A stretch of DNA of 64,000 nt, taken from NCBI GenBank assembly GCA_016176405.1, contig JACOXG010000013.1, forward strand, positions 398-64,397, written 5' to 3'. This DNA is from Candidatus Daviesbacteria bacterium. Its GTDB lineage: Bacteria > Patescibacteriota > Microgenomatia > Daviesbacterales > UBA10151. Below the pieces are notes generated by a model. It was not told the origin of the DNA, did no database searches, and worked only from the letters and a program-made list of their open reading frames with translations. This document shows, in pieces, positions 46,211 through 64,000 of the stretch; the stretch's first letter is position 1; the number at the start of each line of letters is the position of its first letter. The position numbers and the translations under genes were made by a program.

Positions 46211-46216
46211 AGTCAA

Positions 46217-46247: not shown

Positions 46248-46252
46248 CATCC

Positions 46253-47572: not shown

Positions 47573-47749
47573 TTTTCCACTTAAAACTTCACTTTTCCAC
47601 AATTTATCCACTAAATAACCACCATTTTTTAACACGAAATAAAAACGAAAAATGAATATAAATTTTTCATTTTTCAACATATCCACAGGACATATTAATA
47701 ACTATTACTGTTTTAAATATGTAGTATAATCTAACCTCTCTGTGGATAA
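47573..47749. promoter_or_regulatory. oriC-like region: at least 5 DnaA-box matches plus an AT-rich unwinding-element-like stretch between dnaA and dnaN
   Basis: TTTTCCACA (47593-47601), TTATCCACT (47604-47612), ATATCCACA (47669-47677), TGTGGATAA (47741-47749), and an AT-rich aaataaaaacgaaaaatgaatataaatttttcatttttcaac. Confidence 0.6.
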
Positions 47750-48197: not shown

Positions 48198-48198
48198 G

Positions 48199-49296
48199 GT
48201 GAAGTTTTCTTGTCTACAACAAGATCTGCTGCCTCCATTACAACAAGTCGGTCGCTCTGTTGGAGTTCATTCAGCCTTACCTGTTCTGGATAATATTTTA
48301 CTCTCTTGTGAGGGTAAAAAGTTAAGATTAGCAGCCACTAATTTGGAGGTTGGGGTAATAAAGTGGGTCCCAGTTGAGGTGGAAATAGAGGGTGAGCTAA
48401 CCATTCCTGCCAAAACCTTTATTGAGCTAATTTCCAGCTTGGGGCAAAGTAAAATCACCTTTGAGTCTGAGGGAGAAATTTTAACTGTTGAGTCTGGTAA
48501 AGCCAAGGTTACCATCAACGGTATTGCCGCCTCTGAGTTTCCTGCCATTCCGCTACCAGACGGTAAGGGCTTTTCTTTTCCCAAACATATCTTTTTAGCT
48601 TGCTCTCAGATTCTTTTTGCCACCGCAGTTGATGAAGGCAGACCACAGCTGACAGGGGTTTTAACCAAAGCAGAGGGTCAAAAATTAGAGTTTGTAGCCA
48701 CTGATGGTTTTAGATTGGCTCATCTAATAGTACCCCTTGATAAAGAGGGCGCTCCTTTTAAAAGTCTTATTCCCAAAAGAACTTTTGAGGAGATTTTAAG
48801 AATCATTGCTGAAGATAGCGAGGATCAGCTGACTATTTCACCTTCCCAAAATCAAAATCAAATTGTTTTTACTATTGGCCCAACCACTCTTTCCTCCAGA
48901 CTAATTGAGGGGGTTTTTCCTTCTTGGGAAAAAATTATCCCCCAAAAAACTAATACCAGGTTGATCTTGGAACGGGAGGAATTTTTAAAGGCCTTAAAGT
49001 TGGCTGCCATCTTTTCTGCCAGTGAAAATGTGGTTAGTTTAGAATTAGGCAAAGATAAGTTTCAGCTCAGCTCATCTGCCAAGCAGTTAGGTACTCAGGA
49101 GAATGAACTGGAGGCTCAGGTTGAAGGAGAACAGTTAAAGATTGCCTTTAATACCAAGTTTTTATTGGATGTTGTTTCAGCTGCCTCCTCAAAGCAGCTG
49201 ATGGTAGAATTTTCCGGCCCCCTGTCTCCTGCCTTGATTAAACCAGTCGGCATAGAAGGATTGGAATATATTTTAATGCCAGTCAGGTTAACCTAA
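48199..49296 (+). CDS. dnaN: DNA polymerase III beta sliding clamp
   Basis: VKFSCLQQDLLPPLQQVGRSVGVHSALPVLDNILL aligns with the DnaN N-terminus; three-domain length. The GTG at 48199 follows the upstream stop directly; the ORF-track start at 48172 overlaps the preceding gene. Confidence 0.85.
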   Translation: MKFSCLQQDLLPPLQQVGRSVGVHSALPVLDNILLSCEGKKLRLAATNLEVGVIKWVPVEVEIEGELTIPAKTFIELISSLGQSKITFESEGEILTVESGKAKVTINGIAASEFPAIPLPDGKGFSFPKHIFLACSQILFATAVDEGRPQLTGVLTKAEGQKLEFVATDGFRLAHLIVPLDKEGAPFKSLIPKRTFEEILRIIAEDSEDQLTISPSQNQNQIVFTIGPTTLSSRLIEGVFPSWEKIIPQKTNTRLILEREEFLKALKLAAIFSASENVVSLELGKDKFQLSSSAKQLGTQENELEAQVEGEQLKIAFNTKFLLDVVSAASSKQLMVEFSGPLSPALIKPVGIEGLEYILMPVRLT

Positions 49297-49748
49297 AAGC
49301 CTCTAAATTTGACTGTTTTAAAATGGTAAATTTTTTCTTCACTTAATTTGCTACCATCCTCAAATTTGGTATCACCTAAAATAATTAAGGTGTATTCATA
49401 TCCCAACTCAAAGGGTTTGTCCGGAATAATTTTAACTGTCCTTTTATCCTCTGATAACTCCAAACTATATTCAATTTCAGGTTCAAGTCTGTGCTTAAAC
49501 TCACCAGTAAACGATAAGGATTTGTTAAAGGTGATTTCTATAATCTCATCAGAGGAAATAGTGGCATTATCCAAAGGATCTGGTTTGGTAGAAATGATTT
49601 CGGCAGATTCATCTTGGTTTGACTGTGGATTTATTTGATTCTGATTGGGTACACTAGATTGTTTATTATTTTGATTAATCCACCAAAAAATACCAGCTAG
49701 GACGGCTAATCCAATTACTAAAACCACGATTTTCTTGTTTACTTGCAT
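49293..49748 (-). CDS. membrane-anchored/secreted beta-rich protein, first gene-end of the T4SS-like cluster
   Basis: N-terminal TM/signal (IVVLVIGLAVLAGIFWWI), a Gln/Asn/Ser linker, and an Ig-like beta-rich C-terminus. Confidence 0.4.
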   Translation of the reverse strand: MQVNKKIVVLVIGLAVLAGIFWWINQNNKQSSVPNQNQINPQSNQDESAEIISTKPDPLDNATISSDEIIEITFNKSLSFTGEFKHRLEPEIEYSLELSEDKRTVKIIPDKPFELGYEYTLIILGDTKFEDGSKLSEEKIYHFKTVKFRGF

Positions 49749-51577
49749 AAGTTAAAGTATAGATCAGCCGGTTTAAATACTCCATCCTCCTGGATTGTGA
49801 CATGAACATGATCTGTATCTGCTAAATATTGACCTACAGGTGTGGCCGATTGAGCCGTCTGTCCCACTCTTAGGATGGGTGTAATATGTACAAATCTAAT
49901 TGTGTAGTTTTTAGTTTTGGCAGATAGAGCAAATCCGCCACCTTCATTTGTACTTATTGGTGTGCCGGATTCAATGATAGTCCAAGTGACTTGCTCGCCA
50001 TTTAAATAAGGCAAAAATACTGTTTTGTCAGAGCTCTGTAGATCAACAGCTGTTGATCTACCTGTCACATCAGGAGATGCGCAAGGATACTTTTGTTGGT
50101 ATTCTGCACTGCAATGGCCCCCAGGAGTGTCTTTTGAGCCAAGAGTAACGATGCCTCCATTAAGAGGACAACTAACTATCCCATTTCCTCCTCCTGGATT
50201 ATAGCCACTACTGGTTACTTGACAATTTTGGTAGTCTTGCCAGACCTCATTGCAATAACTGTAGCTGCCATAGTTGCAGCTATTGTAGTAGAGTCGGATG
50301 GCTGTATTGACCTGATCTTGAGTTGGCTGTTGAGTAATTCCGTTGGCTTTTAATTTCTCTGCTGCAATTGCCAAGCTGTTGGTAATACTACAAAGGTCTC
50401 CTTTACCTTGATTGTAAATGTCCAAAAGCTGCATCAACCCAACTGCTTGGGCAGTTCTGGCTCCTCTGGCAATTTCTTCAGCAGTACACGGATCATCTTT
50501 TTCAGGATTACTATGTAAAACCTGACCATTTAGCTCACAAAAGCTTTTAGCCTTCTGGCAATACTGATTAGATTTAATAGCATCATGATTATCATCAGCA
50601 TTAGCCACAAAATTGGCACTTTCATGCATGGCAATGCTTGCCAAAACTGCTGGAGCAGCTCCTGCATTGTTACCAGCTGCCACAATCCATCCTTGTAAAG
50701 TGGTGCTTTTAATAGGTAAAGAAGTGCCAGAACGGGTGAACTTGCAATTACTAATGTTAGTGACTGGTGTCACTCCGGCTTCAGACTCTTCTGTGGAAGT
50801 TAAAGGAACAGAAAATCCTGTCAGAAACAGTAGTGCCAAAAATGCTAAAATTATCCCCCAGACTACTTTTTTTGAAGAAGTTTTGGCCCAATTTACTCCT
50901 GGTGAATTGGGAAATCTGCTTAGAACATCGCCTATCCCCCCAATGAATCTGAAACCTCCGTTACCTACCCCACCTAAAACACCACCTAACCCACCGCCCA
51001 GTCTGCTGCCAAATTTTTTTATACCAATGCCTGTGGAAGAACCTAAGTTTTTGACCACCCGCTCACCCACCGCCACCCCACTTCTGTTGGCCACAGCTAG
51101 TTTGGAAGGAGCTGTTTCCTCTGGAGGAGGTTGAGGTGCTCGGGGTACAGTATGAACTATCCTGGGTACTCCAAAAGATCCGCCAGGCATAGGAGGGATA
51201 CCTCCAGCTGCTCCAGCCGCTTCAGCTGGAGGTGATGGTGGCAGGGTTTCTGCCTGCCCAGAAGGAATACCTTCTGCTGAGGCTGTAGGCTCTTCATAAA
51301 AAATTTGTTCCTCAGGTGTTTTGGCGCCTTTATTAATTTCTGTAATTAGTTCACTATTTTTTCTATAAAGGTCTCTGGTAAAAGCCTCAGCAAAATCCTG
51401 ATTGTCCCTGTATGCTAGATTATATTTTTGAAACTGATATCTGGCAGATGGGAAAATCTCCTTTTCAAAATCATATTCATAACCTTTGTAACGGAATTTA
51501 GTTTCTGAGGAATATCTTGGATTAGCTTTGCGCTCCAGAGCCAATGCCAAAAGTTTTTTGTCAGTTATTATTGCCAT
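49739..51577 (-). CDS. bitopic cell-wall hydrolase: SLT-family lytic transglycosylase domain + C-terminal M23 peptidase domain (VirB1/PrgK/TcpG-like role)
   Basis: Cytoplasmic N-terminus, Pro/Gly-rich linker, single TM (VVWGIILAFLALLFLTGF). SLT motifs: MHESANF (catalytic ES) and AVGLMQL. C-terminal M23-like region FVHITP...TDHVHVTIQEDG. Confidence 0.6.
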   Translation of the reverse strand: MAIITDKKLLALALERKANPRYSSETKFRYKGYEYDFEKEIFPSARYQFQKYNLAYRDNQDFAEAFTRDLYRKNSELITEINKGAKTPEEQIFYEEPTASAEGIPSGQAETLPPSPPAEAAGAAGGIPPMPGGSFGVPRIVHTVPRAPQPPPEETAPSKLAVANRSGVAVGERVVKNLGSSTGIGIKKFGSRLGGGLGGVLGGVGNGGFRFIGGIGDVLSRFPNSPGVNWAKTSSKKVVWGIILAFLALLFLTGFSVPLTSTEESEAGVTPVTNISNCKFTRSGTSLPIKSTTLQGWIVAAGNNAGAAPAVLASIAMHESANFVANADDNHDAIKSNQYCQKAKSFCELNGQVLHSNPEKDDPCTAEEIARGARTAQAVGLMQLLDIYNQGKGDLCSITNSLAIAAEKLKANGITQQPTQDQVNTAIRLYYNSCNYGSYSYCNEVWQDYQNCQVTSSGYNPGGGNGIVSCPLNGGIVTLGSKDTPGGHCSAEYQQKYPCASPDVTGRSTAVDLQSSDKTVFLPYLNGEQVTWTIIESGTPISTNEGGGFALSAKTKNYTIRFVHITPILRVGQTAQSATPVGQYLADTDHVHVTIQEDGVFKPADLYFNLCK

Positions 51578-51596
51578 AAATTCATTTTATCTTCTC

Positions 51597-53393
51597 TTAT
51601 GCATTTTGTCTTGCCAAAATTTCCTGTGGGCTGGATGTAATCAGCTCATGTTCTTTAGGGGAAGCCACTACGCTCATGGCTACATGGGTTGATCCGGCAA
51701 AAAATAGGCCTTGGCCTACCCCGGCTGATAATAGCAGTCTCTCCTCTCCTTCCGACAGATAAAAAACCTTAGATAACAGATCAATTGAGGCCGGAGCTTG
51801 TTTAAGTAGGACCTGGATAGATGAGTTGGAAATAATTTCTTTACCCCTCTCAGTTGCCAAAAAATCCTCCACATCTTGGGTTATGGTGGTTAGTCCCAGA
51901 TAGTATTTTCTGGCTCTTTTGGCCATATCCACCAAAAAGTTGGCTGAATCTTCATTTCTCATCAAATACCAGGCCTCATCCACAATTAAAATTCTTTTTT
52001 TGAGCTTAGTTCTGATTTTAGTCCAGACATAATCCAAAATCATATGGATGGCCAAAGGTCGGAGTTGATCAGCCAAATCCCGTACCGAAAAAACTGTGAA
52101 GGAGTTGGTTAAATTGATGTTGGATTGGGAAGAAAAAATGCCCATCAGGGAACCCCTGATAAATCTTTCCAATCTGGCAGCCAGCTCTATGGCTGGTCCC
52201 TCCTCCATGCCCACTAAAATTTTATAAAGATCCTCCATCAAAGGAGGCTGTCTATTTTGAGTTTTTGGATCATCGGTGATACCTTTAAGCTGATAAGTTT
52301 GCTTTAGGGCTCGATCCAAAATGGCACCTTCTGTGGCAGTTAGTTGTCCCAAGACCAATTTTAGAAAAGTAGTTAAAGACAAAATTTTTCGTCCCAGCTC
52401 ATTTTCTCCACTTATTTCTGCTGACATATCAAAGGGATTGATCTTAACCGGCGAAGATGAGGAAAAATTAATAAATTCTCCTCCCACTGCCTGAGCTAAA
52501 GGTAGATACTCTTGCTCAGGATCAATCACGATAATTTCTGTCCCAAACATCAAAGAACGTAGCGCTTCCAGCTTGACAAAGTAACTTTTCCCAGCACCGG
52601 ATTTAGCAAAAACCACCGAGTTGGCATTTTCCAAAGTAAACCTGTCAAATAAAATCAAAGAATCATTGTGAGCATTGATACCATACATAATGCCTTCATT
52701 AGCTGTGAGCTCCGATGAGGCAAAAGGAAAAGTGGTAGCCAAAGAGGTAGTATCCATGTTATGAGCCAGGTTAAGATAATCAACGCCGATGGGAATAGTT
52801 GATCTAAAACCATCTTCCATCTGTAAAGTGGTGGGTCGGGCAGTCATCGACAGGGAGGCAAAGGTTGATTCCACCAGTTTGGAGGTGTTATGGAGTTCTT
52901 CTTTAGATAAAGCAGGTACTGTGATGTATAAGGCAAACTGAAAAAATCTCTCCGCTCCTCTGACCAGTTGATCTTGTAAGGCCCTGGCATCTTCCAAAGC
53001 CACCTCAACTGCTGGATCAACAGCTCTGCCTCTTTCCAGATCTGTTTGGAGCGTTGCCTCCATCTCAGCAATCTTTCTTTTTAATTCATCCAAAACCCCA
53101 GCTGATTCTGAAGGATAAATGAACATGGAGATAAATAGGGAATGATCAAAGGAGATTAATGGTTCTAGCCAGTTTGGTTCCACAAATCTGGGGTAGTTTG
53201 ATACAAAGTAGCTTCTAAAGAAACGATCATTGATGTTGAGCTCATTAAAGTCCACCTCAATCTCTGCCGGGGCAATCACATCAGAGATGGTCAGTTGATC
53301 TTCCCTAGCCACTTCTTCTGGCTTGGTCTTTTTGAATAAACTCGATAATTTCACGTTTTTTGAATCCTTATCCCTCCAACTCCTCCACCACAA
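51597..53393 (-). CDS. VirB4/TraC/CagE-family type IV secretion ATPase
   Basis: Walker A FAKSGAGKSYFV, Walker B RILIVDEAWYLM, and the conserved VirB4 C-terminal region (GLTTITQDVEDF). Confidence 0.8.
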   Translation of the reverse strand: MWWRSWRDKDSKNVKLSSLFKKTKPEEVAREDQLTISDVIAPAEIEVDFNELNINDRFFRSYFVSNYPRFVEPNWLEPLISFDHSLFISMFIYPSESAGVLDELKRKIAEMEATLQTDLERGRAVDPAVEVALEDARALQDQLVRGAERFFQFALYITVPALSKEELHNTSKLVESTFASLSMTARPTTLQMEDGFRSTIPIGVDYLNLAHNMDTTSLATTFPFASSELTANEGIMYGINAHNDSLILFDRFTLENANSVVFAKSGAGKSYFVKLEALRSLMFGTEIIVIDPEQEYLPLAQAVGGEFINFSSSSPVKINPFDMSAEISGENELGRKILSLTTFLKLVLGQLTATEGAILDRALKQTYQLKGITDDPKTQNRQPPLMEDLYKILVGMEEGPAIELAARLERFIRGSLMGIFSSQSNINLTNSFTVFSVRDLADQLRPLAIHMILDYVWTKIRTKLKKRILIVDEAWYLMRNEDSANFLVDMAKRARKYYLGLTTITQDVEDFLATERGKEIISNSSIQVLLKQAPASIDLLSKVFYLSEGEERLLLSAGVGQGLFFAGSTHVAMSVVASPKEHELITSSPQEILARQNA

Positions 53394-54126
53394 ATGGGTG
53401 AGCTCTCGATGATTGGCTTCTAATTGGAGCTTGGTCTAATTTTGTTTCAGCTGCTATTTGAGAAACCTGGGCTGGTGTGACAGTTTCTAAAGGTTTGGGA
53501 GTACTCTTAGGCTCCTTTAAATTAACAGGCATGGTGGGTAAAGCTGGACTGGGTTTGGTACTGTAGTTGTAGATATTAAAAAAAACTTGTAAAAGTTTTT
53601 GGTTATCAAGCTGGGTGGCTTTCAAGCCGATTCTAGACAGCTGTCTCAAAATTTGATCTCGCCTGGGTAGTAGGACAGTTTTTATTTTTTGCTCCAGAGC
53701 TTGTTTTGAGGCAATCAGCCCCAGTTCCAATTTAAAAAGGGGCACCACTATATAAAATTTTTTATCTAAAACTTCATTTTCTTTGATGGTGGATTGGATA
53801 AATTGCCGGTAATGACTCATCATCTGAGATAACAGTTGGTTAGTTTGACTCTTTTGCGCCTTATTCAACAGCTCAAGATAGGATGAGATGTCCAATCTTT
53901 CTGAATCGATGACAATTTGGATACTAAAGGATAGGGAATTTAGCATTTGGGCAAAAGCATCAATGATGGCCATTTGCTCCCGGCCAGAAAGCAAACCAAA
54001 ATTAACAGCCGAAACTTGCAAAATTAAGGCTCCGCCACCACCTTTTAAAATGACGATTCCTTCCTGAATATCAGCTATGGGCAGATGATTTTGGGTGGTA
54101 TTCATGTTAGCTTTTAGCCACCACAT
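53368..54126 (-). CDS. hypothetical T4SS-associated protein (26-nt overlap with the VirB4 gene; possibly a detached VirB4 N-terminal module)
   Basis: 252 aa, no TM; coupled to the downstream ATPase gene by overlap. Confidence 0.35.
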   Translation of the reverse strand: MWWLKANMNTTQNHLPIADIQEGIVILKGGGGALILQVSAVNFGLLSGREQMAIIDAFAQMLNSLSFSIQIVIDSERLDISSYLELLNKAQKSQTNQLLSQMMSHYRQFIQSTIKENEVLDKKFYIVVPLFKLELGLIASKQALEQKIKTVLLPRRDQILRQLSRIGLKATQLDNQKLLQVFFNIYNYSTKPSPALPTMPVNLKEPKSTPKPLETVTPAQVSQIAAETKLDQAPIRSQSSRAHPFVVEELEG

Positions 54127-55183
54127 TAATGGGTGGTAAAACAGAACCTGTCAGTTCAATCTGTAATACATCAAAGGCAAAATTTTCCTTCTCCAGCTCC
54201 AGAGTGTAGATGCCATTAGGCAAAGGAGTAGAGCCACTAAATTGACCTAATTTGTTAGTTTTTAAGGCTCTGACTGGTAGACCCTCTTTGTCATAGATGA
54301 CTGCCACCACTCCTTCTAAATAATTGCCCACTGTATCTTTGACCACCCCATTAATCACATTAGGAAAAGTAGTCAGGGCCACCTGAGCAATCTTTGGTCT
54401 AATTGGGATGACTACCTTAACTTTTTCCTTAGGTGGCTCTTTTTCCGAAGGTTCCGGAGGCCCGGAAACATTTTCCAGTTTTTCCTTGACCGCCGATGCT
54501 TGAGTGATCATGTTTTTTAAATCAGCCAGGATCTTATTGACTTGCTGGCTGTAATCAACTGGTATGGGAGTAGGTTTGGTAGCTTCAGCCCTAATTTGTC
54601 CTAAAGTTCTTTCTGTCTGAATAATTTTTAGCTGTAAATCTTGAGCCTGTTTGGCCAAGTCAACTGTTTTTTGCAACTCTTCGCCGGTGGGCAGTTGGGA
54701 GACAGGTTTAGAGAGCTGAGGAGTTGGTGGAGTAGGTTCTTCGGGCACCTTTTTCATCTGAGGACCGGAAGTAAAAACTAACAATCGGCTGCCAAAAAGA
54801 GGATCTTCAAAATAGCTTTTACCTGCTCTTATCCAAGATCTTTTGGTGGGAGAATAGATGGCTTTAATGAAGGCTGCAAACCAGTGATCAAGGGGTCTAG
54901 ATCCTATTGGTAAAAAAGCAAAAGCTACTCCTGAAAGGGCCGATAAAACAATCAAAGGCCAAGCCAGATAAGGGTAAGGAGCGGCTAAAAAGACAAACAT
55001 TAAATAGGCCAAACCAACACCGGTTGCCAGGTAAAGAAACTGTTTTAAAGTCATATCCCCAATCAGCCTAAACTGAAATGAGGTGACATTTTGTGGAATA
55101 GGATGTGGTTCCATGACTATAAGGTATGCTACAGCGTGAAAAATTACAGGTAAAGAGGTACAAAGTAGGTCATTTAAGGGCAA
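54107..55183 (-). CDS. T4SS-associated membrane protein: VirB3-like two-TM N-terminus + C-terminal carboxypeptidase-regulatory-like beta-sandwich domain
   Basis: TM pair (FLYLATGVGLAYLMFVFLAAP / LIVLSALSGVAFAFLPI), a Pro/Glu/Lys linker, and a C-terminal GVVKDTVGNYLEGVVAVIYDKEG..NGIYTLEL CarbopepD_reg-like region. Confidence 0.4.
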   Translation of the reverse strand: MPLNDLLCTSLPVIFHAVAYLIVMEPHPIPQNVTSFQFRLIGDMTLKQFLYLATGVGLAYLMFVFLAAPYPYLAWPLIVLSALSGVAFAFLPIGSRPLDHWFAAFIKAIYSPTKRSWIRAGKSYFEDPLFGSRLLVFTSGPQMKKVPEEPTPPTPQLSKPVSQLPTGEELQKTVDLAKQAQDLQLKIIQTERTLGQIRAEATKPTPIPVDYSQQVNKILADLKNMITQASAVKEKLENVSGPPEPSEKEPPKEKVKVVIPIRPKIAQVALTTFPNVINGVVKDTVGNYLEGVVAVIYDKEGLPVRALKTNKLGQFSGSTPLPNGIYTLELEKENFAFDVLQIELTGSVLPPINVVAKS

Positions 55184-55266
55184 TCTGAACCAATCTGAGA
55201 GAAAGTACTACACAATATACGCTATATTGACAGAAAAAGTTTTCTTGATATGCTGAAATGGTGGTG

Positions 55267-55315
55267 TACCATCCTGAGTACTGAGCGAAGTCGAAGTATC
55301 GAAGGGTAAGGTACA
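55267..55315 (+). repeat. copy of the dispersed repeat with GTACC/GGTAC inverted termini, in the leader of the minus-strand T4SS operon
   Basis: gtaccatcctgagtactgagcgaagtcgaagtatcgaagggtaaggtac. Confidence 0.55.
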
Positions 55316-55480
55316 AAAGGGAATCCAGTGTAAATCTGGAGTCCATGAAGTGGATCGCTTAGCGATCACTTCAGGACCATGAAGTGAACTTTGCTCTACT
55401 TCATGGCTGTGCCGCAACTGTTAAAGCCAGGAGACCGACCACTCCGCCATCTGGCGGATTCTTTCCCGAGCAGGAGCAAT

Positions 55481-56782
55481 ATGCCAGTTGAAACCTTAGA
55501 ATCATCATATATTCCTCCACCTGAAATAGCCGAAATTGCCATCCCAGAAGTCTTTGTAGAGGCTTTTAGAGAAGAGCCTTCACCTTTAGAATTAAGATCA
55601 ACCAAAGTATCTGAAAGACAGTGGTATTTGTTGCCTGGAACAGGATTTGATGTTAGGGGGCAAATTAATAAACTGATCAGAAGTTTAAATTCTCACTTGG
55701 ATGGGAAAAATCAAGCACAAGTAGTGAGTGAATTTGTCGAAGATACAGCTGAAGATATGAGACATTTTGTAATTGAGTATCCCTTGCAAAGATTAGTTTT
55801 CCCTATTTTTTTAGATCTTAGACAAGGTGGAGTCAGAAAATTAATCGCCCCCCGCTATAGTAACCAGACTTATTCAGATTTGATTTCTTCACAAGAAAGA
55901 AGAGGATCTGTTAAAAGTTCAGTTCTTAGAATAGAGAGCCTGATGATTGATGCTCCTGAGGGTACTATCGCTGGATTCATCAGTCCTCCGGGCTGGACAG
56001 ATCTAGAGGATAGACAAGGAGGGAAGATTGAGTTTGTTGATAATCAAATTTACCTGTATAAAAAGACTAAGACCGGGTTAGAGGCAAGAACAGTTAGGAC
56101 TGATCTAACTTTGGAGCAAAGCGAATTATTACTAGAACAGCTCAACTTCACAAGGGAGAATCCTCCTAATTTACATACCCCGGAAGAAAGAATTATGACA
56201 GTGGTGGAAAGCGTTTTTTACTTACAAGGTCAGACCTTTGAAACTGTGGTGGATCTTATAAAAACAACCAAAGGTAGTGAGCTCGCTTATAAGGACAGAT
56301 CTTTTGAGGAGATTTATTATGATTTGAGTTTGGGTGATGATCTTTTGGACTTTAATTTGGATGTCCAAAAGTATGCTGAGCCAATCATTGAACAGTTTAA
56401 ACTTTTGGCTAGGAACAAATTGGTATATATTTCAGATCAAACTTTAGATGAGCTAGAAATGGAGTTGGGAAAAGCCATATTAAGAATACATAAAGCAATT
56501 AAGAGCAGACATTCTTCTGATGAAATGATTAGACCTATTCCCTATATGACAGAAACAGATTTTAAGAGAGAACTGGTACAACTGCAGGTAATACCAGGAT
56601 GTAATGGAGGAAGCTGTAGACGTTTTATTATAACAGCTTCTGGTGGTGTTAGAGAACTGGTAGGTAATTCAAAGTCCATATCCCCAGATTTTTATGAGTA
56701 TTGTCCTGCTTGTGATGAGGAAATTAATTGTACTGTTAAGGTTGGTCAATCATGCCCCAAATGTAATAAAGTCAGAATGTAA
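55481..56782 (+). CDS. hypothetical protein with a C-terminal multi-Cys zinc-ribbon-like module
   Basis: The ATG at 55481 has AGGAG 5 nt upstream; the ORF-track start at 55391 lacks an RBS and overlaps a GC hairpin. The C-terminus reads CNGGSC...CPACDEEINC...CPKCNK. Confidence 0.45.
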   Translation: MPVETLESSYIPPPEIAEIAIPEVFVEAFREEPSPLELRSTKVSERQWYLLPGTGFDVRGQINKLIRSLNSHLDGKNQAQVVSEFVEDTAEDMRHFVIEYPLQRLVFPIFLDLRQGGVRKLIAPRYSNQTYSDLISSQERRGSVKSSVLRIESLMIDAPEGTIAGFISPPGWTDLEDRQGGKIEFVDNQIYLYKKTKTGLEARTVRTDLTLEQSELLLEQLNFTRENPPNLHTPEERIMTVVESVFYLQGQTFETVVDLIKTTKGSELAYKDRSFEEIYYDLSLGDDLLDFNLDVQKYAEPIIEQFKLLARNKLVYISDQTLDELEMELGKAILRIHKAIKSRHSSDEMIRPIPYMTETDFKRELVQLQVIPGCNGGSCRRFIITASGGVRELVGNSKSISPDFYEYCPACDEEINCTVKVGQSCPKCNKVRM

Positions 56783-56863
56783 ATTGTAAATAAACTTTAG
56801 TTAAATTCATCCCAATACCGTCAGGATTATATCAGGATTTAATCAAGCACTTAATTCCGATTT

Positions 56864-56930
56864 ATTGTTAAATTGCTTCATTGTTATATTGTCTTAAAAA
56901 ACAATTTAACAGTTTAACAATATAACAATT
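56864..56930. promoter_or_regulatory. nested inverted repeats (TTGTTAAATTG / TTGTTATATTG ... CAATTTAACA / CAATATAACAA) upstream of a TTGACA-N18-TACACT promoter and GGAAAGG RBS for the giant gene
   Basis: Palindromes read directly from the sequence; a -35-like TTGACA at 56943-56948. Confidence 0.5.
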
Positions 56931-57003
56931 TTATTTGTTGAAGTTGACACTTAGGTTTCCAAGGCTCTACACTAATTAAGGTAGGCCTTGTGGAAAGGCT
57001 TAC

Positions 57004-60000
57004 ATGTCTAATGCTGAAAGATTAAATATGGCAGATGCTATTGCAACAGAAACAGCTGAGCCAAAAGTAGTGGTTACTTCTGAGAAAGACAGCTACCAAA
57101 AAGGCGGCATAATGAGGTGGCTTAAAAGAGGTTCAAAGGCTCAAGTTTTGATGAAACCAGGTGAATTTGAACCTCCCACAGCAACTCAAGATTCTCAAAT
57201 TGAGAATGTGCATGCTCGGAATCAACAAGCAGCTGAGACATCTTCCAAGAGAGAACATATCCTAAAATTACCTGGTTATGATCCAAATAAAGAATATGAG
57301 ATTAGAGAATTGGGGAATGCTGTAATTATTGTTGATCCAGTAACAGGGAAAGAGATAGGTATATTACCAAGAATTGCTGGAGGTAGCCCGGATATACCAG
57401 ATTGGATTACTGAAGCAGCCAAGAGTAAGCCTTTGAGGTTACAGGAAGCTCAAGAGCTTGATCAAATTTATTCAAGGGTTGATCGTTCTAGACTTCCTGG
57501 GCATCAGGTTGGTGAATTAGACCGCATGATTCAGGCAAATCAGAATGAACTCAATACCCTTCAGAGAGAGGTAGAGCAACTGTTTGAAGAAGCAAGCAAT
57601 GACAATATCTTGAATTTTGTCATAAATGATGTAAGAGCTGCTTACATTAAAGCCATTCAACCACCGCCAGCTTCCATTTGGGAAGCGCAACCTCCAACAG
57701 GCCGAGAAATTGATTTGAAAAATTATCAGGAAACATTTTGGGATTTAGGATACGATGTTTTGCGCGATTTATTTTTAAGGGGGGCGGTCGGACCTATTGA
57801 CATAAGAGCGTTACGAGCAAAGTATGAAGGTTTGGGCAGTTATATAGCCTCAAGAGCGGCTGTAGCTATTGATAAGGATTTAAAAGGATTACCATTATCA
57901 CCATCGACTGAGTTAGGAGATCGTATTCTTGAGGGTGTCAAAAGGGAACATGAATATGCAGAAAGCAGAAGAAGAGCAAGAGCCAGTGCTGATGAGATGC
58001 TTAGATATAGTGACTGGAGAGAACGCTTTGATTTTGACTGGGCTCAAAATAGGCCGGAGTTGAGAGCCTCAGTTTTTGCCTGGCTGGAGAAATTTGTTGC
58101 CCATTTACCAGAAGCAACAATAGATGAACTTAACAATGAATCACTGACTTGGAAGCGTAATGCTATCAGTGCTCTGGAAAAAGCTGCCAATAGGCTACGA
58201 ATTTCAGAAAAAGAACCTTTTTACAAAGAACTTAAAAGTACTATTGAAGCATATGTTGAAGTATATCGAGGAGCAAAGTTTTTGGAAACTGATGGTGGGC
58301 TTGAGGCGGCTACAATTGCCTTGGAAGAATTTGCCCATAATTTTAATCCTAAACATGATGCAATATATTTAGGTAATGCTAAATCTGCCATTATTCAAGC
58401 CTTTATGGCTAGAAATCATGGGGCCATATCCGCTAGCACCGTACCCATCACAAGAGATACCGCTCCTACGGGCGCAGCCATTGAAACTATTGAGAAACCT
58501 CAGGCAGGAGACTTGGAAGAGTTTAGAGGTAATATAGAAGAGCAAGCAAAACAATATGCAGCCACTCACCAGTTATATATCAGGGAAGCTGATTTTGAAA
58601 CAAGAATTAGACAAAGTAACGGGGGTTATAGTTGGGATGATGTTATCGAAGACTTATTACTCGAAGATAGAAGGGGTATGAATGCCGCTAATGCTTTAAC
58701 AGACCCGATTGCTCAAGCTGAAGCTATAGCCAGAGTAGTAACCAGAACAGGTGTTTTCCAAAGAATTAAAGAAAGGTTGGATAGAGAAGATGAAGCGAGA
58801 GATGGAAGAAGCTTTGCCGAACTCACAGATGATGAAAGAAGAGAAGAGATTAGGTTTAGGATCAGAACAAAGATGTTTCTGACAGGATATAGAAATCTGG
58901 TAGACGACATTGATCTTACCACAGATCCGGTAGACAAAGACAGGAAATTATGGAATTGGCTAAAAGGATACAACCTAAGAAGAGAAATCCAGGGTCATAC
59001 GTTGTTTTTCCCCAGCTACTGGGATGAAGTCAGATTAAGCATAAATAGACCAACCAAATTAGTAGATAGGGCTCTCCAAGAAATCAATAAAGCTGAACAA
59101 ATGAGGAGATTGAATCCCATTCAAGCAGAAGCCATCCGAAACAGTATCAAAAACGAAATGAGAGCTAGAGGGGCGGATAAAGAAGTTGACAGAATTGAAT
59201 CCTTAATAAGTCCGCTTAATAGAGACAAGGCTTTATGGAGATGGGTTGATAAGTATAATGCAGCCAGAAAAGACCGTGGGGAGGAACCTTGGTATGCCGG
59301 TGATTGGGATAGAGCTCTACCTGAAGACGAGCTTGAGGCCATGATTGAGGAAGTAGATCCTTTTAGAGGGGTATTACGCATTGATGGCTTAACAGATCAA
59401 GAGATTAATACAGCCATAGAAAATCTTAATTGGACAGATCCCGCACAACCCAATTTTATTGGAAGTGGATTAACTGCTGAACAAATTGAAACAGCCAAGA
59501 GAGAAATGTTGGAAGATGCTTTATTTGATAAACAACAACGAGAAACTGAGGCTGAACGAGCTTACAATATTAACAGAGCTTACCAGAAATTCTTAGGAAT
59601 TGATGCCAGATGGGGTGGTATGTCTATAAGGGAGATTAATGATGAGGGAGAGATGTTCCTGAAAAATGTCTGGGAGAAAGCTGAAGAAATATTGAAGGAG
59701 AAGATTGATAATGAGGAAGAAGAAACAGAAGAAAAAGTAGCTGCCCTTGAAGCAGCTTTAAGAGCCAGAGGGGGTTTAACAGATGCTGAGATAGAGACAA
59801 CTCTCATTGAAAGAAGAAGGTTATTAAGAAGGGATTCCACATTCGGAGCCACCTTGGCGCTTAGGGAAATAGGCATTGCTAATGATTTACCCATTTGGAA
59901 TTACTATTACTATAACGACCCTCAACGTATTCAAACTTTTGCTCCCTTGGTGGGATATACACATAATGATAAACCACAAATAATCGATCTTTTGGACAGA

Positions 60001-61419
60001 GGCAGAAGGGAAATGAGAGCGGTTTGGGATTATCTGGCAGATACTTACATGGATGGTAGAGTCTTGATAGTCAGAGATGAGCCGAATGCTGATGTTAATG
60101 AAAATGGTCAGCCAAAAGACTTTCATCAAGAAAGATGGGATCGGGCCAGGGTCATTAATGAGGCTGGAGTACAAGCCCTAAGAGAAGTATTTGAATCAAG
60201 ATTTATGTTGTCAACTAGCGGAGGGATAGAAGTAGTAGATTTAATCTCTAAGATAGGAGACTTAGGCATATATGATTTGCTTTGGGAAATGGGTTGTAAG
60301 GATTTTAGGGAATTTCAGGGATTTATTAAAAGACGAGATGAAGTGGAACTTAGAAGACAAAGTTTTTGGAATATTAGAGAATGGAGAGATCCCATTTCTT
60401 ATGCTAAAAGACTAAGAGGTGGAGGTGGAGCAATAGTATATCTTCGAGGAGGAGAGGTAAAAGGGCAACAACGTGAGCCAGGCGTACTTCAGGAACCGAT
60501 GATGGGTGCTTATAAATTTAGAGATGAATATGTGAATCGAGAGCATTGGGTAAGTAGTGACATAAGGAATAAACTAGATCAGACTACTGCGGAGTTTAGG
60601 AGAATACTCCAAGAGATAATTAATAATGACCAGAACCTAAGCAAACTTACTGAACAGGAGCGAGATAAACTGATAGAGGTAGGAGCAGGAGTGTTAATTA
60701 CCCTTATAAAATTCATGGATGCCCTGAGGTATAAGATGAATAGAGCCGGACTGGCTCCTAAAAACTGGAAATTAGACAATGAGCTGAACTTCAGACATTA
60801 TGCTGTGGAGTTATTAAAAAGGGTGTCAATTGAAGGCCGAGCAGCTATCTTAGGTGGCGGTGAAAAATTAGGGGAGCAAGATTTAGGTTATGCTGTACAA
60901 GGTAGAAGTCCACTGACTATTAAGATATTCGAAAATTTTTTCAGAACCAGCTCCTACCATATCTTAGTAGAAAAAGATCGTAAAGTTTTTGATCAGATGG
61001 GACAAGAGGTTAAAGCCAGGATGGATACTAAAAGAAGAGAGCTAGATGCTCAACCCTTGCCTGTCGCAATTCAAACAAAAATTAATAATAGGAGAAATCG
61101 TTTAAGAGCCTTGGGTATGGGTACAAGGATAGATAGATTAATAAATCGGGGAGTACTTTCACAATCAGAAATTGATTCATTAACAGATATTCATTTACGA
61201 TTCGAAATGGACAACAAAAGAAAAGAGGAGTTGAAGTCTAGAGGGGTACCTGATGAAGAAATAGATTCATTTCTTAATTTAAACCAAGAGCTTCGGAGAA
61301 TGAGGAATCAATACATAAATGAAGAGCTCCATAGGCAGTTTTATGGGGAATGGTCTGCTAAATTGGCAGAAGTTGCCGAGCAGTTAGAGAAGGTCGGATC
61401 GTATAAACTTGGGGTGTAA
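57004..61419 (+). CDS. giant (1471 aa) highly charged Glu/Arg/Asp-rich hypothetical protein, no signal peptide or TM, no motif I recognise
   Basis: A single uninterrupted ORF with a strong RBS; no Walker or HUH motif recognised; embedded in the T4SS-like cluster. Confidence 0.6.
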   Translation: MSNAERLNMADAIATETAEPKVVVTSEKDSYQKGGIMRWLKRGSKAQVLMKPGEFEPPTATQDSQIENVHARNQQAAETSSKREHILKLPGYDPNKEYEIRELGNAVIIVDPVTGKEIGILPRIAGGSPDIPDWITEAAKSKPLRLQEAQELDQIYSRVDRSRLPGHQVGELDRMIQANQNELNTLQREVEQLFEEASNDNILNFVINDVRAAYIKAIQPPPASIWEAQPPTGREIDLKNYQETFWDLGYDVLRDLFLRGAVGPIDIRALRAKYEGLGSYIASRAAVAIDKDLKGLPLSPSTELGDRILEGVKREHEYAESRRRARASADEMLRYSDWRERFDFDWAQNRPELRASVFAWLEKFVAHLPEATIDELNNESLTWKRNAISALEKAANRLRISEKEPFYKELKSTIEAYVEVYRGAKFLETDGGLEAATIALEEFAHNFNPKHDAIYLGNAKSAIIQAFMARNHGAISASTVPITRDTAPTGAAIETIEKPQAGDLEEFRGNIEEQAKQYAATHQLYIREADFETRIRQSNGGYSWDDVIEDLLLEDRRGMNAANALTDPIAQAEAIARVVTRTGVFQRIKERLDREDEARDGRSFAELTDDERREEIRFRIRTKMFLTGYRNLVDDIDLTTDPVDKDRKLWNWLKGYNLRREIQGHTLFFPSYWDEVRLSINRPTKLVDRALQEINKAEQMRRLNPIQAEAIRNSIKNEMRARGADKEVDRIESLISPLNRDKALWRWVDKYNAARKDRGEEPWYAGDWDRALPEDELEAMIEEVDPFRGVLRIDGLTDQEINTAIENLNWTDPAQPNFIGSGLTAEQIETAKREMLEDALFDKQQRETEAERAYNINRAYQKFLGIDARWGGMSIREINDEGEMFLKNVWEKAEEILKEKIDNEEEETEEKVAALEAALRARGGLTDAEIETTLIERRRLLRRDSTFGATLALREIGIANDLPIWNYYYYNDPQRIQTFAPLVGYTHNDKPQIIDLLDRGRREMRAVWDYLADTYMDGRVLIVRDEPNADVNENGQPKDFHQERWDRARVINEAGVQALREVFESRFMLSTSGGIEVVDLISKIGDLGIYDLLWEMGCKDFREFQGFIKRRDEVELRRQSFWNIREWRDPISYAKRLRGGGGAIVYLRGGEVKGQQREPGVLQEPMMGAYKFRDEYVNREHWVSSDIRNKLDQTTAEFRRILQEIINNDQNLSKLTEQERDKLIEVGAGVLITLIKFMDALRYKMNRAGLAPKNWKLDNELNFRHYAVELLKRVSIEGRAAILGGGEKLGEQDLGYAVQGRSPLTIKIFENFFRTSSYHILVEKDRKVFDQMGQEVKARMDTKRRELDAQPLPVAIQTKINNRRNRLRALGMGTRIDRLINRGVLSQSEIDSLTDIHLRFEMDNKRKEELKSRGVPDEEIDSFLNLNQELRRMRNQYINEELHRQFYGEWSAKLAEVAEQLEKVGSYKLGV

Positions 61420-61433
61420 TTTAAGGATGAATA

Positions 61434-63212
61434 CTAAGGTTTTTTGAGCCTCCACTTCAAAGGATTCCAGGTAGAAGCACTTCTATCTATAGCTTGAAAT
61501 ACCCCAGGTCTAACAGGGCCATACTCAAATCCTCCCGTAGAGGGATCGAAACGATATCCATACTCTCCAAAAATACCCCTCTTTATATTTCCTGAAGCTT
61601 CTGTGACAGCACCAGTTGACTGCCCATAATATGTTCGACCGCTTGCTACACCACCGGAAATTTCCTGTCCTAGAAATTGTCCTGCCTGACCCATTCTACC
61701 AATAGTACTAACTACAATGTCTGGAATTTTGGGAAGTGCCATTAATGCCCCAAAAGCCAAAAGAAGATTAATGAAATTTAAATCCAATCCTCCAAGCAAT
61801 GGAAATGTCTTTTCACCTGTGATTTGAGTATTAGTTTGGGCGGAAACAATAAAACTATTGTTATCTACATAGTTTGATTGTGAAATTTTTAAGGGATAGT
61901 CATTTTTTACAATGCCCGGACCTAAAAGAAAGGCCACAAAATAAAATACCGCCAAAACTGCAGGGAATACTAATATATTTGCCAACATATTTAATATCCA
62001 GGCAGTTGCTATACCTTGCCTTCCTGGTAAGGCTGCTGCCAGAAATTGGAAGGGAGCACTTATTGTCAGAAAGATAATCGTCAAGTAGGTTGTTAGAAGC
62101 CTAAGCAATAACTTTAACATCTGGTAAATTAAGGCCAAGGTTGCTACAAAGCTAATAATGAACCCTAAAAAGAATGTGGGGGCGCCTGCCCCAGCCCCGA
62201 TTGCTATTAAACTAACGGCGGGACCTAAAAATAGACTAAGAGGACCCAGAGCGGCAGGTACACCTCCTGCCAAAGGTGCTATGAGGTGAGCGGATAAGAG
62301 TCCTGCTACTATTCTTAAGGTACCTTGAGCATCGCCTAATTTATCCCAAACAGATCCTAAAGCCTCAGATGCTCTCTCTTGTGTGACTATTCCTACAAGG
62401 GGGCTAAATATAGATAAAACATTCTCTCTGGAGATTTTATTGACCAAATTTGTTCTTTCTGGGTCATCTGTTTTTCCTTGGGCAGCGGCAAAATAATAAC
62501 CTACCATATTTGTTCCCACAAAGGCCATATCTGAAACCAGGCCTGCTAAGAAATAACTAAAGGTAATTAAAATTAATCCAATCACCAATCCTGGTAGAGC
62601 TGCCTGAGCAGTAATGACTGTTTGAGGATTAATTCTTTGTCTAAACATCACCATTAGCCCAATAATCACAAAAATAATGGTCATAATTACATAAGAGATA
62701 TTTCTGGATACCTGCCATAAGGCTAAAATAGGACGTAATACTCCCTCTCCGGATCCTACCACTTGAGCATTAACCTGTTTCACTACTCTAAACTGATCTC
62801 CAAAGGAAGCCAGGTAATCAACAGTTCTAACAGGCGGATTCATGTATAAAGCTGTAATTAAAGAGGTGGTTGTTCCCAAAGCTCCGTTAGATAAATTGGT
62901 TTGGGATAAAATAGGAACTCCCTGAATTGCTCCTTGCGCATTTTTAGTGATCTGATAAGTCAAACATGGTTGGCCGATAAAGGAAGAGCCAACAGTTAGA
63001 CAGGAAAAAGTATGAAACATGTTGTGGACTAAAAGATCTGTATAAAGGGGGGAGGTAGGAGAGATAGAGGTGGGAAGTTGGAGGTTGGAAGATGGATATT
63101 GAGGTGGGAAGTTGGAGGTTGGAAGAGCACTGGGAGTAGCAGTTTGAGCATTAGCAATGGGAATATTAAATATTAAATAGCAAATAGTAAATAATGCCAG
63201 TACCACTGTCAT
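61434..63212 (-). CDS. VirB6/TrbL-like polytopic membrane protein with an N-terminal signal peptide and a Pro/Ser/Thr-rich extracellular segment
   Basis: Likely start at MTVVLALFTICYLIFNIPIANA|Q (signal peptide); the ORF track extends to 63308 through a repeat-element copy. At least 8 TM helices arranged as in VirB6/TrbL; sits next to the pilin-like and VirB4 genes. Confidence 0.5.
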   Translation of the reverse strand: MTVVLALFTICYLIFNIPIANAQTATPSALPTSNFPPQYPSSNLQLPTSISPTSPLYTDLLVHNMFHTFSCLTVGSSFIGQPCLTYQITKNAQGAIQGVPILSQTNLSNGALGTTTSLITALYMNPPVRTVDYLASFGDQFRVVKQVNAQVVGSGEGVLRPILALWQVSRNISYVIMTIIFVIIGLMVMFRQRINPQTVITAQAALPGLVIGLILITFSYFLAGLVSDMAFVGTNMVGYYFAAAQGKTDDPERTNLVNKISRENVLSIFSPLVGIVTQERASEALGSVWDKLGDAQGTLRIVAGLLSAHLIAPLAGGVPAALGPLSLFLGPAVSLIAIGAGAGAPTFFLGFIISFVATLALIYQMLKLLLRLLTTYLTIIFLTISAPFQFLAAALPGRQGIATAWILNMLANILVFPAVLAVFYFVAFLLGPGIVKNDYPLKISQSNYVDNNSFIVSAQTNTQITGEKTFPLLGGLDLNFINLLLAFGALMALPKIPDIVVSTIGRMGQAGQFLGQEISGGVASGRTYYGQSTGAVTEASGNIKRGIFGEYGYRFDPSTGGFEYGPVRPGVFQAIDRSASTWNPLKWRLKKP

Positions 63213-63233
63213 CCTGAGCGCAGCGAAGGATCT
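63208..63233 (+). repeat. copy of the dispersed repeat overlapping the start codon of the VirB6-like gene
   Basis: gtcatcctgagcgcagcgaaggatct. Confidence 0.55.
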
Positions 63234-63348
63234 CAATATTAATCTAGAGATTCTTCGGCCTTTGGCCTCAGAATGACACTTTATGTCAGTTTTGAGTTTG
63301 GACAACATACTTTAAGAGTAAACTAAATAAGCTGTAAATGTCAAAGAT

Positions 63349-63690
63349 TTATCTTGGACAAAACCATTTGGTGGGATCTGCTTTGGCATTTGGATCACCA
63401 CATAAAGCAAAGATATTAAAAACAGTTACTTCTATGCCGGTAAAGGCTTGGATTAGCTGTAAAATAATCCAGGCGATGGCCAAAAATAGAGCTCCCAAAA
63501 GGGCCCAAGTCACTGTTTGATGAGCAGCTTGAATGGCTTTGGGTTCACCACCGCTAATTAAATATTTAATCCCAGCCCAGACCAAAAAGGCCAGCATAGC
63601 TACAAAAGCCAGTCCCACCACCACAGAAATGATGCTGGTAAAAACTTGCTCTATTTCTACTAAACCCGCAGGTGAAGGACCAGGATTCAT
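63349..63690 (-). CDS. VirB2/TrbC-like pilin-like small membrane protein (paralog 1)
   Basis: 113 aa; hydrophobic helix, short charged loop (SGGEPKAIQAA), second hydrophobic helix; paralogous to the adjacent gene. Confidence 0.45.
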   Translation of the reverse strand: MNPGPSPAGLVEIEQVFTSIISVVVGLAFVAMLAFLVWAGIKYLISGGEPKAIQAAHQTVTWALLGALFLAIAWIILQLIQAFTGIEVTVFNIFALCGDPNAKADPTKWFCPR

Positions 63691-63693
63691 GTT

Positions 63694-63969
63694 TTAGGGA
63701 GCCGGAGTGGGGATGTTGAAATTACGGATATCAAACCCTAAGAATAACCCGGCTACCTGGAATAAAGCAAAAGCAATGGCCAAAACAGCCAAACCAATTA
63801 AGGCATTAATAATTCTGCCTCTGGCCTTACCAACAGCCTCTTTGTCTCCTCCTGAGGTAATCCATTCAAATGCTCCCCAAACTAACATGGCTAAAACTAC
63901 CAGTACAGCCACCATAAAAGCCAAAACAAGAGTTTTTTGGATAAAATCACCTAAAGTGGAAAATCCCAC
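63694..63969 (-). CDS. VirB2/TrbC-like pilin-like small membrane protein (paralog 2; the start may lie beyond the window edge)
   Basis: Helix, SGGDKEAVGKA loop, helix; the reading frame stays open upstream to position 64000, so the N-terminus is uncertain. Confidence 0.45.
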   Translation of the reverse strand: MGFSTLGDFIQKTLVLAFMVAVLVVLAMLVWGAFEWITSGGDKEAVGKARGRIINALIGLAVLAIAFALFQVAGLFLGFDIRNFNIPTPAP

Positions 63970-64000
63970 ATCACGTCCATCTACTCGGGGTCTTTCTATG

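Follow-up and report, generated by a model that had tools for sequence, protein, structure and literature searches.

The stretch of DNA analysed here, a 64-kb window from a Candidatus Daviesbacteria bacterium, carries next to dnaN a block of genes (49293-64000) that we read, with high confidence, as a chromosomal, origin-adjacent Patescibacteria type IV secretion system (T4SS) descended from monoderm (MPF-FATA) conjugation machinery. The block is built around two minus-strand operons. The first runs from 55183 to 49293 and encodes a PrgI/VirB3-like protein (358 amino acids, aa), a TrsD-like protein (252 aa), a VirB4-family ATPase (598 aa) and two bitopic proteins of 612 and 151 aa, with start/stop overlaps among the first three genes and between the last two. 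The second runs from beyond 64000 to 61434 and encodes T4SS pilins and a 624-aa polytopic protein.

We compared this locus with the best 80 of more than 588 genome matches to VirB4 (tblastn), all of them metagenome-assembled genomes; their informative labels are all Patescibacteria, and about half carry generic or proteobacterial assembly labels. The 80 loci span Davies-, Woese-, Gottesman-, Roizman-, Levy- and Pacebacteria. As determined by tblastn and clustering of open reading frames (ORFs), the PrgI-TrsD-VirB4 set lies at most 6 kb from dnaA/dnaN in 63 of these 80 Microgenomates loci, at a median distance of 2.8 kb, while the remaining 17 are mostly short contigs or have VirB4 near a contig end. 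Because the set stands beside dnaA/dnaN in 63/80 genomes, the block is fixed in the chromosome rather than mobile, and since no relaxase, type IV coupling protein (T4CP) or integrase accompanies it within the 64-kb window, the system is probably not a conjugative element. A preliminary description of the window had proposed a T4SS-like cluster with divergent parts, in a core origin context and perhaps non-conjugative, and had suggested looking for conservation at the dnaA/dnaN locus, which the comparison reveals. These parts of the interpretation hold. Its counting of a Cys-ribbon protein as a member is unsupported, its SLT+M23 hydrolase is without confirmation by profiles, and its divergent promoter region is a cobalamin riboswitch; the host-attachment or DNA-uptake role that it put forward is a putative one for this class. 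The system is a typical member of a known T4SS kind, and its main points are already published. Our analysis adds no new kind of system; it separates out two non-core genes and adds one regulatory RNA.

Two operons of a secretion system

The 598-aa product of the third gene in the first operon (51597-53393, minus strand) is the C-terminal ATPase part of a VirB4-family protein. It matches the NCBIfam model conju_CD1110 with 389.6 bits (cutoff 325) and Pfam P-loop_TraG with an E-value of 2.6e-25, and its translation shows a Walker A motif, FAKSGAGKSY, as well as a Walker B motif, ILIVDEAW, which confirms the VirB4-family ATPase and both motifs as first read. Its scores against the Gram-negative TrbE and VirB4 models are far under the cutoffs, and it matches CedB weakly (52.8 bits, cutoff 700). 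Identity to the 80 Patescibacteria homologues is 55-83%, compared with at most 40% to plasmid VirB4s. The nearest VirB4s outside the candidate phyla radiation (CPR; 30-40% identity) come from conjugative plasmids or regions resembling integrated conjugative elements (ICEs) of Firmicutes (Bacillales, Clostridia) and Actinobacteria.

The N-terminal domain of VirB4 is found as a separate, translationally coupled ORF, the TrsD-like gene (53368-54126, minus strand), which overlaps virB4 by 26 nt. Its product matches NF041427 (TrsD/TraD, E 9e-9), and its alignment to the full-length VirB4 models VirB4_plasma and CD1110 covers their N-terminal 100-280 residues; homologues in relatives are annotated as PF26593 (TraC-like). 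The split TrsD and VirB4 arrangement occurs in nearly all 80 loci. The coupling attributed to this upstream ORF in the preliminary description stands, and its product can be given a family. Upstream of it, the PrgI/VirB3-like membrane protein (54107-55183, minus strand) scores 38.4 bits against PF12666 (cutoff 27) and carries a long C-terminal extension with a weak CarboxypepD_reg-like beta-sandwich (E 0.0017, below cutoff); the homologue in L085, a close relative, shows the same weak pair. Of the fusion first proposed for this gene, the VirB3-like part is therefore well supported and the CarboxypepD_reg-like part weak. The PrgI gene is present in 77 of the 80 loci, with a median length of 363 aa.

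The 612-aa bitopic protein (49739-51577, minus strand) belongs to a family with four parts, namely a variable, disordered P/G-rich N-terminus, one transmembrane (TM) helix, a conserved Cys-rich domain and a variable C-terminal module. The single TM helix agrees with the bitopic nature first assigned to it. The Cys-rich central domain contains MHES, GLMQ and YYN motifs, which resemble, and no more than that, the three motifs of family-1 lytic transglycosylases. Neither this protein nor 32 homologues show an SLT domain by Pfam, the profile of the central domain has no PDB match, and its alignment to hen lysozyme (hhalign, approximate query sequence) is not significant. For the C-terminal module, hhalign gives a weak match to M23 (E 5.7e-4, probability 30%); the D of 'AVDL', 'VHI' and 'HVHV' meet M23 motifs, and the first His of HxxxD is not conserved. 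In homologues, CHAP, Peptidase_M23, C39-like or glucosaminidase modules take this place, a genuine PF01551 domain occupies the same columns of the alignment in one of them, and the C-terminal domain is common to the gene after virB4 in many other Microgenomates. In Southlakia epibionticum, peptidase and lysozyme homologues right after virB4 are essential (PMC12102498). Against the hydrolase assignment stands the lack of any Pfam, NCBIfam or PDB-profile match for the full 612-aa protein, and the SLT+M23 call is reduced to motifs that no profile method confirms. A cell-wall hydrolase in the role of VirB1 nevertheless appears a reasonable inference from the motifs, the C-terminal modules of the family and the S. 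epibionticum genes. The last gene of the operon (49293-49748, minus strand) encodes the 151-aa bitopic protein, with an N-terminal TM helix and a weak Ig-like domain (Big_5, E 8e-4, 20.5 bits, below the cutoff of 23.6), and is kept at the same position in 9 Daviesbacteria loci.

The second operon contains two tandem VirB2/TrbC-like pilin genes on the minus strand. The 113-aa pilin (63349-63690) and the pilin cut by the window end (63694-64000; 147 aa in the identical short contigs L001-L003) score 30.1 and 37.0 bits against PF18895 (cutoff 26.6), in agreement with the two tandem pilin-like genes described before. Pilin arrays of about six genes occur in the close relatives L084 and L085, and the two pilins of the window correspond to the end of such an array. 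The first array gene in L084 (6360-7508) and L085 (5451-6602) encodes a protein of 382-383 aa with the PF18895 domain at its C-terminus only; this protein could be a pilin greatly extended at its N-terminus, for instance a tip or adhesin-type subunit, and its counterpart here would lie beyond the window end.

Next to the pilins lies the gene for the VirB6-like polytopic membrane protein of 624 aa (61434-63308, minus strand; annotated with 590 aa from a start at 63206). The best match of its predicted structure is VirB6 (TrwI of R388, PDB 7o3v), at 8% sequence identity and with Foldseek E-values that are not significant. It has roughly twice the length of TrwI and carries an extracytoplasmic region with Cys residues at its N-terminus and an extension at its C-terminus. 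No VirB6/TrbL profile (PF04610 or PrgH-type) matches it or 40 homologues, even at E-values up to 1, and it has no PDB profile match. It combines a TrwI-like polytopic helical fold with a location in a T4SS cluster, and in 28 loci a member of its family is encoded directly after the pilins. For Microgenomatia, VirB6 has been reported as scarce and extreme divergence suspected (PMC12102498). With moderate confidence, and leaving family membership aside, we suggest that the 624-aa protein works like VirB6, and its family is the obvious candidate for the Microgenomatia VirB6. The earlier label 'VirB6/TrbL-like' thus agrees with the best structural match but finds no counterpart in the PF04610 profile. 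At the level of Pfam profiles, the VirB3-like protein (PF12666) and the pilins (PF18895) are above cutoff, but VirB6, VirD4 and relaxase profiles have no match among the ORFs scanned.

These parts suggest how the machine could work. The 612-aa protein would open the peptidoglycan in the manner of VirB1, and the 624-aa protein would act as a VirB6 channel or pilus-base subunit. Hexamers of VirB4, anchored at the membrane by PrgI, would pull pilins from the membrane, and the extracted pilins would build a pilus on the VirB6 platform; VirB4 would also power macromolecule transfer over the single membrane.

The function of Patescibacteria T4SS has been called 'completely unknown' (PMC11665869). 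Wang et al. (2023) described in S. epibionticum a Gram-positive-like, pilin-bearing and relaxase-less T4SS (SEML1_0006-0019) that is essential for growth on the host, pilins included (PMC10633639); it is the one species in which the need for a Patescibacteria T4SS in epibiotic growth has been tested. By analogy with this homologous cluster, which S. epibionticum needs in order to grow on its host, the machine described here most likely serves host exploitation and not conjugation. Among the possible activities, protein export to the host is the leading, still tentative, choice; import of host material appears somewhat less likely, pilus-mediated contact alone would be rather unlikely, and DNA transfer very unlikely.

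A further reading is a DNA-uptake machine like Helicobacter ComB or archaeal Ced that would feed a nucleotide-auxotrophic cell, an idea raised in the literature (PMC11665869). The weak VirB4-CedB match and the absence of relaxase and T4CP from the window would fit it. However, the best VirB4 matches are conjugation-type and not CedB, no CedA-like or ComB-specific partners were seen in the locus, and the window says nothing on transport direction. In S. epibionticum comEC is dispensable and the T4SS essential (PMC12857230), which neither proves nor excludes uptake through the T4SS. We regard DNA uptake as unlikely, although less so than the other alternatives considered below.

The genes between the operons

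We do not count the region between the two operons with the T4SS core. A 297-bp spacer separates PrgI from the annotated start of the Cys-ribbon gene, and within it, in the 5' leader of that gene, lies a cobalamin riboswitch aptamer (55245-55457, plus strand; Rfam RF00174) with a hairpin insertion of about 65 nt. The RF00174 match covers the full-length aptamer and reaches 27.2 bits (E 4.4e-5 over the 501 nt searched), short of the gathering score of 31.5. Alignment with relatives demonstrates that all conserved core blocks are kept, namely GGTGGTG, AAGGGAAUCCAGUGUAAAUC, CUGUGCCGCAACUGU and AGCCAGGAGACCGACCAC. The insertion is built of CCATGAAGTG repeats, the same repeats that had been noticed before; what had been taken for a repeat-containing divergent promoter region is this riboswitch, which the preliminary description missed. 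The region folds with a z-score of -2.96, and a terminator-like GC-rich hairpin followed by a T-rich tract lies at 55443-55458, 23 nt 5' of the ATG.

Orthologous copies were scored with Rfam models and nhmmer on the strand of the Cys-ribbon homologue. RF00174 copies were found on the minus strand in L084 (18132-18308, 67.5 bits), L085 (18305-18476, 62.2 bits), L004 (3255-3479, 53.5 bits) and L012 (7549-7694, 51.4 bits), and copies of the adenosylcobalamin class AdoCbl-II (RF01689), likewise on the minus strand, in L008 (7906-7984, 41.6 bits) and L006 (5762-5841, 36.5 bits). Further RF00174 or AdoCbl-II riboswitches lie on the plus strand in L070 (4369-4522), L088 (94-223) and L089 (5727-5802, AdoCbl-II). 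Overall, the orthologous copies range over 48-67 bits for RF00174 and 36.5-41.6 bits for RF01689. Because the conserved blocks are kept and the orthologous copies of relatives score above the gathering threshold, the window element is accepted as a cobalamin riboswitch by orthology; ligand binding by this inserted copy is putative. The riboswitch is absent from 13 T4SS loci of other Microgenomates, and the searchable literature holds no mention of a cobalamin riboswitch in Patescibacteria.

The gene under this control (55481-56782, plus strand) encodes a Cys/zinc-ribbon protein of 433 aa from the annotated ATG, or 463 aa from the mechanical ORF start at 55391. No family can be assigned to it from searches against Pfam, NCBIfam, PDB and PHROG, and its AlphaFold2 model (pLDDT 66.6) is without informative structural neighbour. 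Relatives are 424-487 aa long (339 aa in L006) and evolve very fast, with N-termini barely alignable between subtypes. Common to the family are a 'hydrophobic strand-SPPG(W)' element, a 'GC(N/A)GG' motif, a Gly/Ser-rich linker and a C-terminal CxxC...CxxC zinc ribbon. In Davies- and Roizmanbacteria a cobalamin riboswitch nearly always stands 5' of the genes of this family, and a Cbl-type riboswitch core was found just upstream in 6/6 independent metagenomic relatives.

A B12 cluster that ends with the zinc-ribbon gene is found in two Roizmanbacteria-like genomes. Locus L089 (1257-7245) encodes nrdR, an intein-containing class II ribonucleotide reductase, a PduO-type corrinoid adenosyltransferase (PDB match, E 1.5e-31), the AdoCbl-II riboswitch and the zinc-ribbon gene; a T4CP lies 1.2 kb past the latter, and there is no VirB4 or PrgI within 6 kb. 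In L070 (3-5810), a unit of nrdJ, PduO, riboswitch and zinc-ribbon gene is located 2.6 kb upstream of PrgI. This position suggests a cobalamin-related function for the zinc-ribbon gene. The gene is missing from several Daviesbacteria loci (L007, L009). From the riboswitch upstream, the nrdJ/PduO neighbours and the absence of the riboswitch from the 13 other T4SS loci, we conclude that the Cys-ribbon gene belongs to a cobalamin regulon and lies in the T4SS locus only in some lineages; its protein is probably B12-related and not a T4SS part. In organisms unable to make B12, the family may thus be a new addition to the cobalamin regulon.

At the place held by the riboswitch and zinc-ribbon gene in Daviesbacteria, some other Microgenomates carry a VirD4-like coupling protein (TrwB_AAD_bind, TraG-D_C), divergent beside PrgI (L021 5592-7787, L022, L031, L033, L042, L071, L072, L075); one is also present in L089 (8472-10835). 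We considered the Cys-ribbon protein as a degenerate coupling protein and rejected this, as hhalign against the Microgenomates T4CP family shows no relation. The Cys-ribbon gene and its downstream neighbour are separated by an AT-rich spacer of 221 bp, which contains inverted repeats at 56863-56929. Toxin-antitoxin pairs (PIN/PhD, RelB-type, HicAB) lie in and beside the T4SS locus of relatives, at the place of this spacer (L084 15725-16521; L085 16317-16876 and 4907-5380).

The neighbouring gene (57004-61419, plus strand) encodes a highly charged, soluble protein of 1471 aa without TM helices, about 32% of whose residues are charged. It has no assignable family, no detectable domain, no match in Pfam, NCBIfam, PHROG or PDB, and matches to only 43 cluster representatives of 1.84 billion. 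When the genes immediately upstream of PrgI were scanned, 35 Microgenomates loci showed large charged ORFs, 40 in all (570-1470 aa), on the opposite strand and usually between the VirB6-like gene and PrgI. They split into many tiny similarity groups and are mostly unalignable, even where flanking genes are about 60-80% identical. In L085, for example, the slot holds a 1416-aa protein without BLAST or hidden Markov model (HMM) similarity to the 1471-aa protein, at 62% identity between the VirB6-like proteins. An iterative HMM search from the 1471-aa protein across the related loci found only three relatives and did not link the same-slot proteins. A host-specificity factor or secreted substrate would be expected to show such a pattern, in which the position is conserved and the sequence is beyond recognition, and these very divergent proteins may be regarded as natural candidates for host-specific factors. 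The gene itself is lineage-restricted and should not be counted as a core T4SS part.

It could be argued that the whole stretch 49293-64000, Cys-ribbon and 1471-aa proteins included, forms one functional apparatus. Both genes do lie between the two T4SS operons, the arrangement recurs in Daviesbacteria, and in most Microgenomates loci this slot is likewise filled by a large charged protein. However, the control and the neighbours of the Cys-ribbon family are those of a cobalamin regulon, once with no VirB4 or PrgI within 6 kb, which leaves its earlier assignment to the T4SS unsupported; the 13 other Microgenomates T4SS loci do without the riboswitch, and L007 and L009 without the Cys gene. The large proteins, in turn, are unalignable even at 62% identity of the VirB6-like proteins. 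A single apparatus is therefore doubtful, and we retain the reading of a T4SS core with two non-core genes between its operons.

In Daviesbacteria and some Roizmanbacteria the T4SS locus is nevertheless physically joined to a cobalamin-sensing module, and a dependence of these cells on B12 seems likely from the class II ribonucleotide reductase and PduO adenosyltransferase of relatives. There is a slim chance that the Cys-ribbon protein and the large charged protein (570-1470 aa) are B12-responsive cargo or adaptors of the T4SS; the epibiont would then, on the same long odds, up-regulate host-directed factors at corrinoid shortage. If true, this would offer the first concrete substrate or regulatory handle on the Patescibacteria T4SS.

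Location beside the replication origin

The replication origin is located at dnaA, which makes the T4SS block origin-proximal. This is supported by the DnaA boxes that flank dnaA (46253-47572, plus strand), by the minimum of the cumulative GC skew at 46-52 kb of the window, and by rnpA-yidC-jag on the opposite side of dnaA from the T4SS block. Specifically, oriC-type DnaA-box clusters extend over 46183-47749; the window contains three perfect TTATCCACA boxes, all flanking dnaA (46183, 46202 and 47741), and further boxes with one mismatch lie at 47593-47687. The boxes are 1.5-3 kb away from the end of the T4SS operon. Between them lies dnaN (48172-49296, plus strand; DNA_pol3_beta Pfam domains on the identical gene in loci L086/L087), which is convergent with the T4SS operon and overlaps its last gene, encoding the 151-aa bitopic protein, by 4 nt. 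In a Pacebacteria-like subgroup of the related loci, dnaA-dnaN is inverted.

Mobility genes were sought over the 64-kb window. Pfam scans of the ten ORFs of the block and of 40 further ORFs, out of 46 with 120 aa or more in the rest of the window, found no T4CP, relaxase or integrase, and tblastn with two Microgenomates T4CPs found no T4CP, in accordance with the lack of VirD4, relaxase and integrase already reported for the window. Likewise, no mobility genes were found in the 10 kb beyond the VirB6-like gene and pilins in L084 and L085, where six pilin genes, a toxin-antitoxin pair, SpoIID, unknowns and SmpB are encoded. An integrase with a variable insertion site is not what the locus presents: the window has no integrase and the location is constant over the class (flanking repeats were not systematically searched).

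Several points weigh against the reading as a fixed, vertically inherited T4SS. No VirB8-like subunit was identified in the locus. The membership of VirB4 in the Patescibacteria clade is suggested by an identity proxy, not a tree. Identities of VirB4 and dnaA across the loci correlate weakly (Spearman 0.24, p 0.065), and vertical descent is for this reason argued from synteny and not from co-divergence. With a source contig of about 67 kb, a T4CP or relaxase may also be encoded elsewhere in the genome; some Gottesman-, Woese- and Roizmanbacteria encode a T4CP beside PrgI. Finally, the function of Microgenomates T4SS is proposed by analogy only.

That the block is an ICE or its remnant, near the origin by chance, is highly improbable: the homology of VirB4, TrsD and PrgI to Gram-positive conjugation parts, the closest non-CPR VirB4s on conjugative plasmids or in ICE-like regions and the toxin-antitoxin modules inserted in the locus of relatives would agree with it, but no relaxase, T4CP or integrase is present in 64 kb nor in 10 kb past the pilins of relatives, the same order recurs beside dnaA/dnaN in 63/80, the G+C content over the block is nothing unusual and shows no compositional break, and PMC12102498 concludes alike.

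The ORFs of the block lie at the positions given in the preliminary description. In the rest of the window, Pfam scans reveal ordinary housekeeping genes at positions 1-46 kb, among them prolidase, SbcCD-like, metG, TatD, glycosyltransferase, groEL and murB genes, as well as genes for AdoHcy hydrolase, TsaD, a class I (valS-type) tRNA synthetase and L25, polysaccharide genes, jag and yidC. A further 151-aa protein is encoded between dnaA and dnaN (47742-48197, plus strand) and overlaps the dnaN ORF; it contains an endonuclease domain resembling archaeal Holliday junction resolvases (PF10107, E 8.4e-9) and is 72-80% identical across Daviesbacteria loci, above the identity of dnaA or dnaN. Additionally, a 960-aa protein (38108-40990, minus strand) combines an N-terminal NAD-dependent epimerase-like region with DUF4012, and a DUF4012 family (cluster c12) is also found near yidC-jag at the origin in many related loci.

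Comparison with known systems

The riboswitch shares its core sequence blocks and overall architecture with RF00174/RF01689. It differs from known cobalamin riboswitches in the insertion of about 65 nt and the score below the gathering threshold, and the gene it controls belongs to an uncharacterised zinc-ribbon family instead of being a known B12 transporter, biosynthesis gene or B12-independent isozyme.

The monoderm MPF-FATA systems provide the best-scoring models for VirB4, the TrsD-like protein and PrgI, namely pGO1/pSK41 TrsD-TrsE, CTn2 CD1110 and pCF10 PrgI. These conjugation systems are mobile, have a relaxase, a T4CP and an origin of transfer (oriT), and are without VirB2 pilins. In contrast, the locus described here has no relaxase or T4CP in the window, possesses pilins and is fixed at the origin.

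The T4SS of S. epibionticum ML1 has in common with this locus the Gram-positive-type subunits and pilin array and the absence of a recognisable relaxase or coupling protein from the cluster. Its low locus-tag numbers suggest an origin-proximal location, as here, and its peptidase/lysozyme homologues directly follow virB4, as does the 612-aa gene. S. epibionticum belongs to a different class (Saccharimonadia), and essentiality was shown there, whereas the present system is known from its genes; the likeness of parts other than VirB4 is judged by description.

The closest correspondence is to the Microgenomatia arrangement reported by Quinonero-Coronel et al. (2025) in a survey of 3,035 Patescibacteria genomes (PMC12102498). 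According to this survey, Patescibacteria VirB4s form a monophyletic clade nested in MPF-FATA, TrsD is the commonest VirB4 partner, PrgI is present along with tandem divergent VirB2 pilins recognised by PF18895, relaxases are nearly absent, and the loci are near dnaA/dnaN in Microgenomatia and Paceibacteria (PMC12102498). A 2025 FEMS review treats these systems as an established T4SS subgroup (PMC12857230). The present locus shares with this arrangement a VirB4 of MPF-FATA ancestry, the TrsD-like partner, PrgI/VirB3, divergent PF18895 pilins, the lack of a relaxase and the position near dnaA/dnaN. A riboswitch or very divergent genes within the locus are not mentioned in PMC12102498. The survey also finds VirB3 often not near Microgenomatia virB4 and VirB6 scarce in this class, whereas here PrgI adjoins in 77 loci and the 624-aa family, in 28 loci, has VirB6 as its best structural match. 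Together, our data sharpen the parts list for Microgenomatia: a modular hydrolase-like gene follows virB4 in many loci, in almost all loci examined PrgI adjoins the TrsD-like gene and virB4, and a structurally VirB6-like protein is present where profile searches find none.

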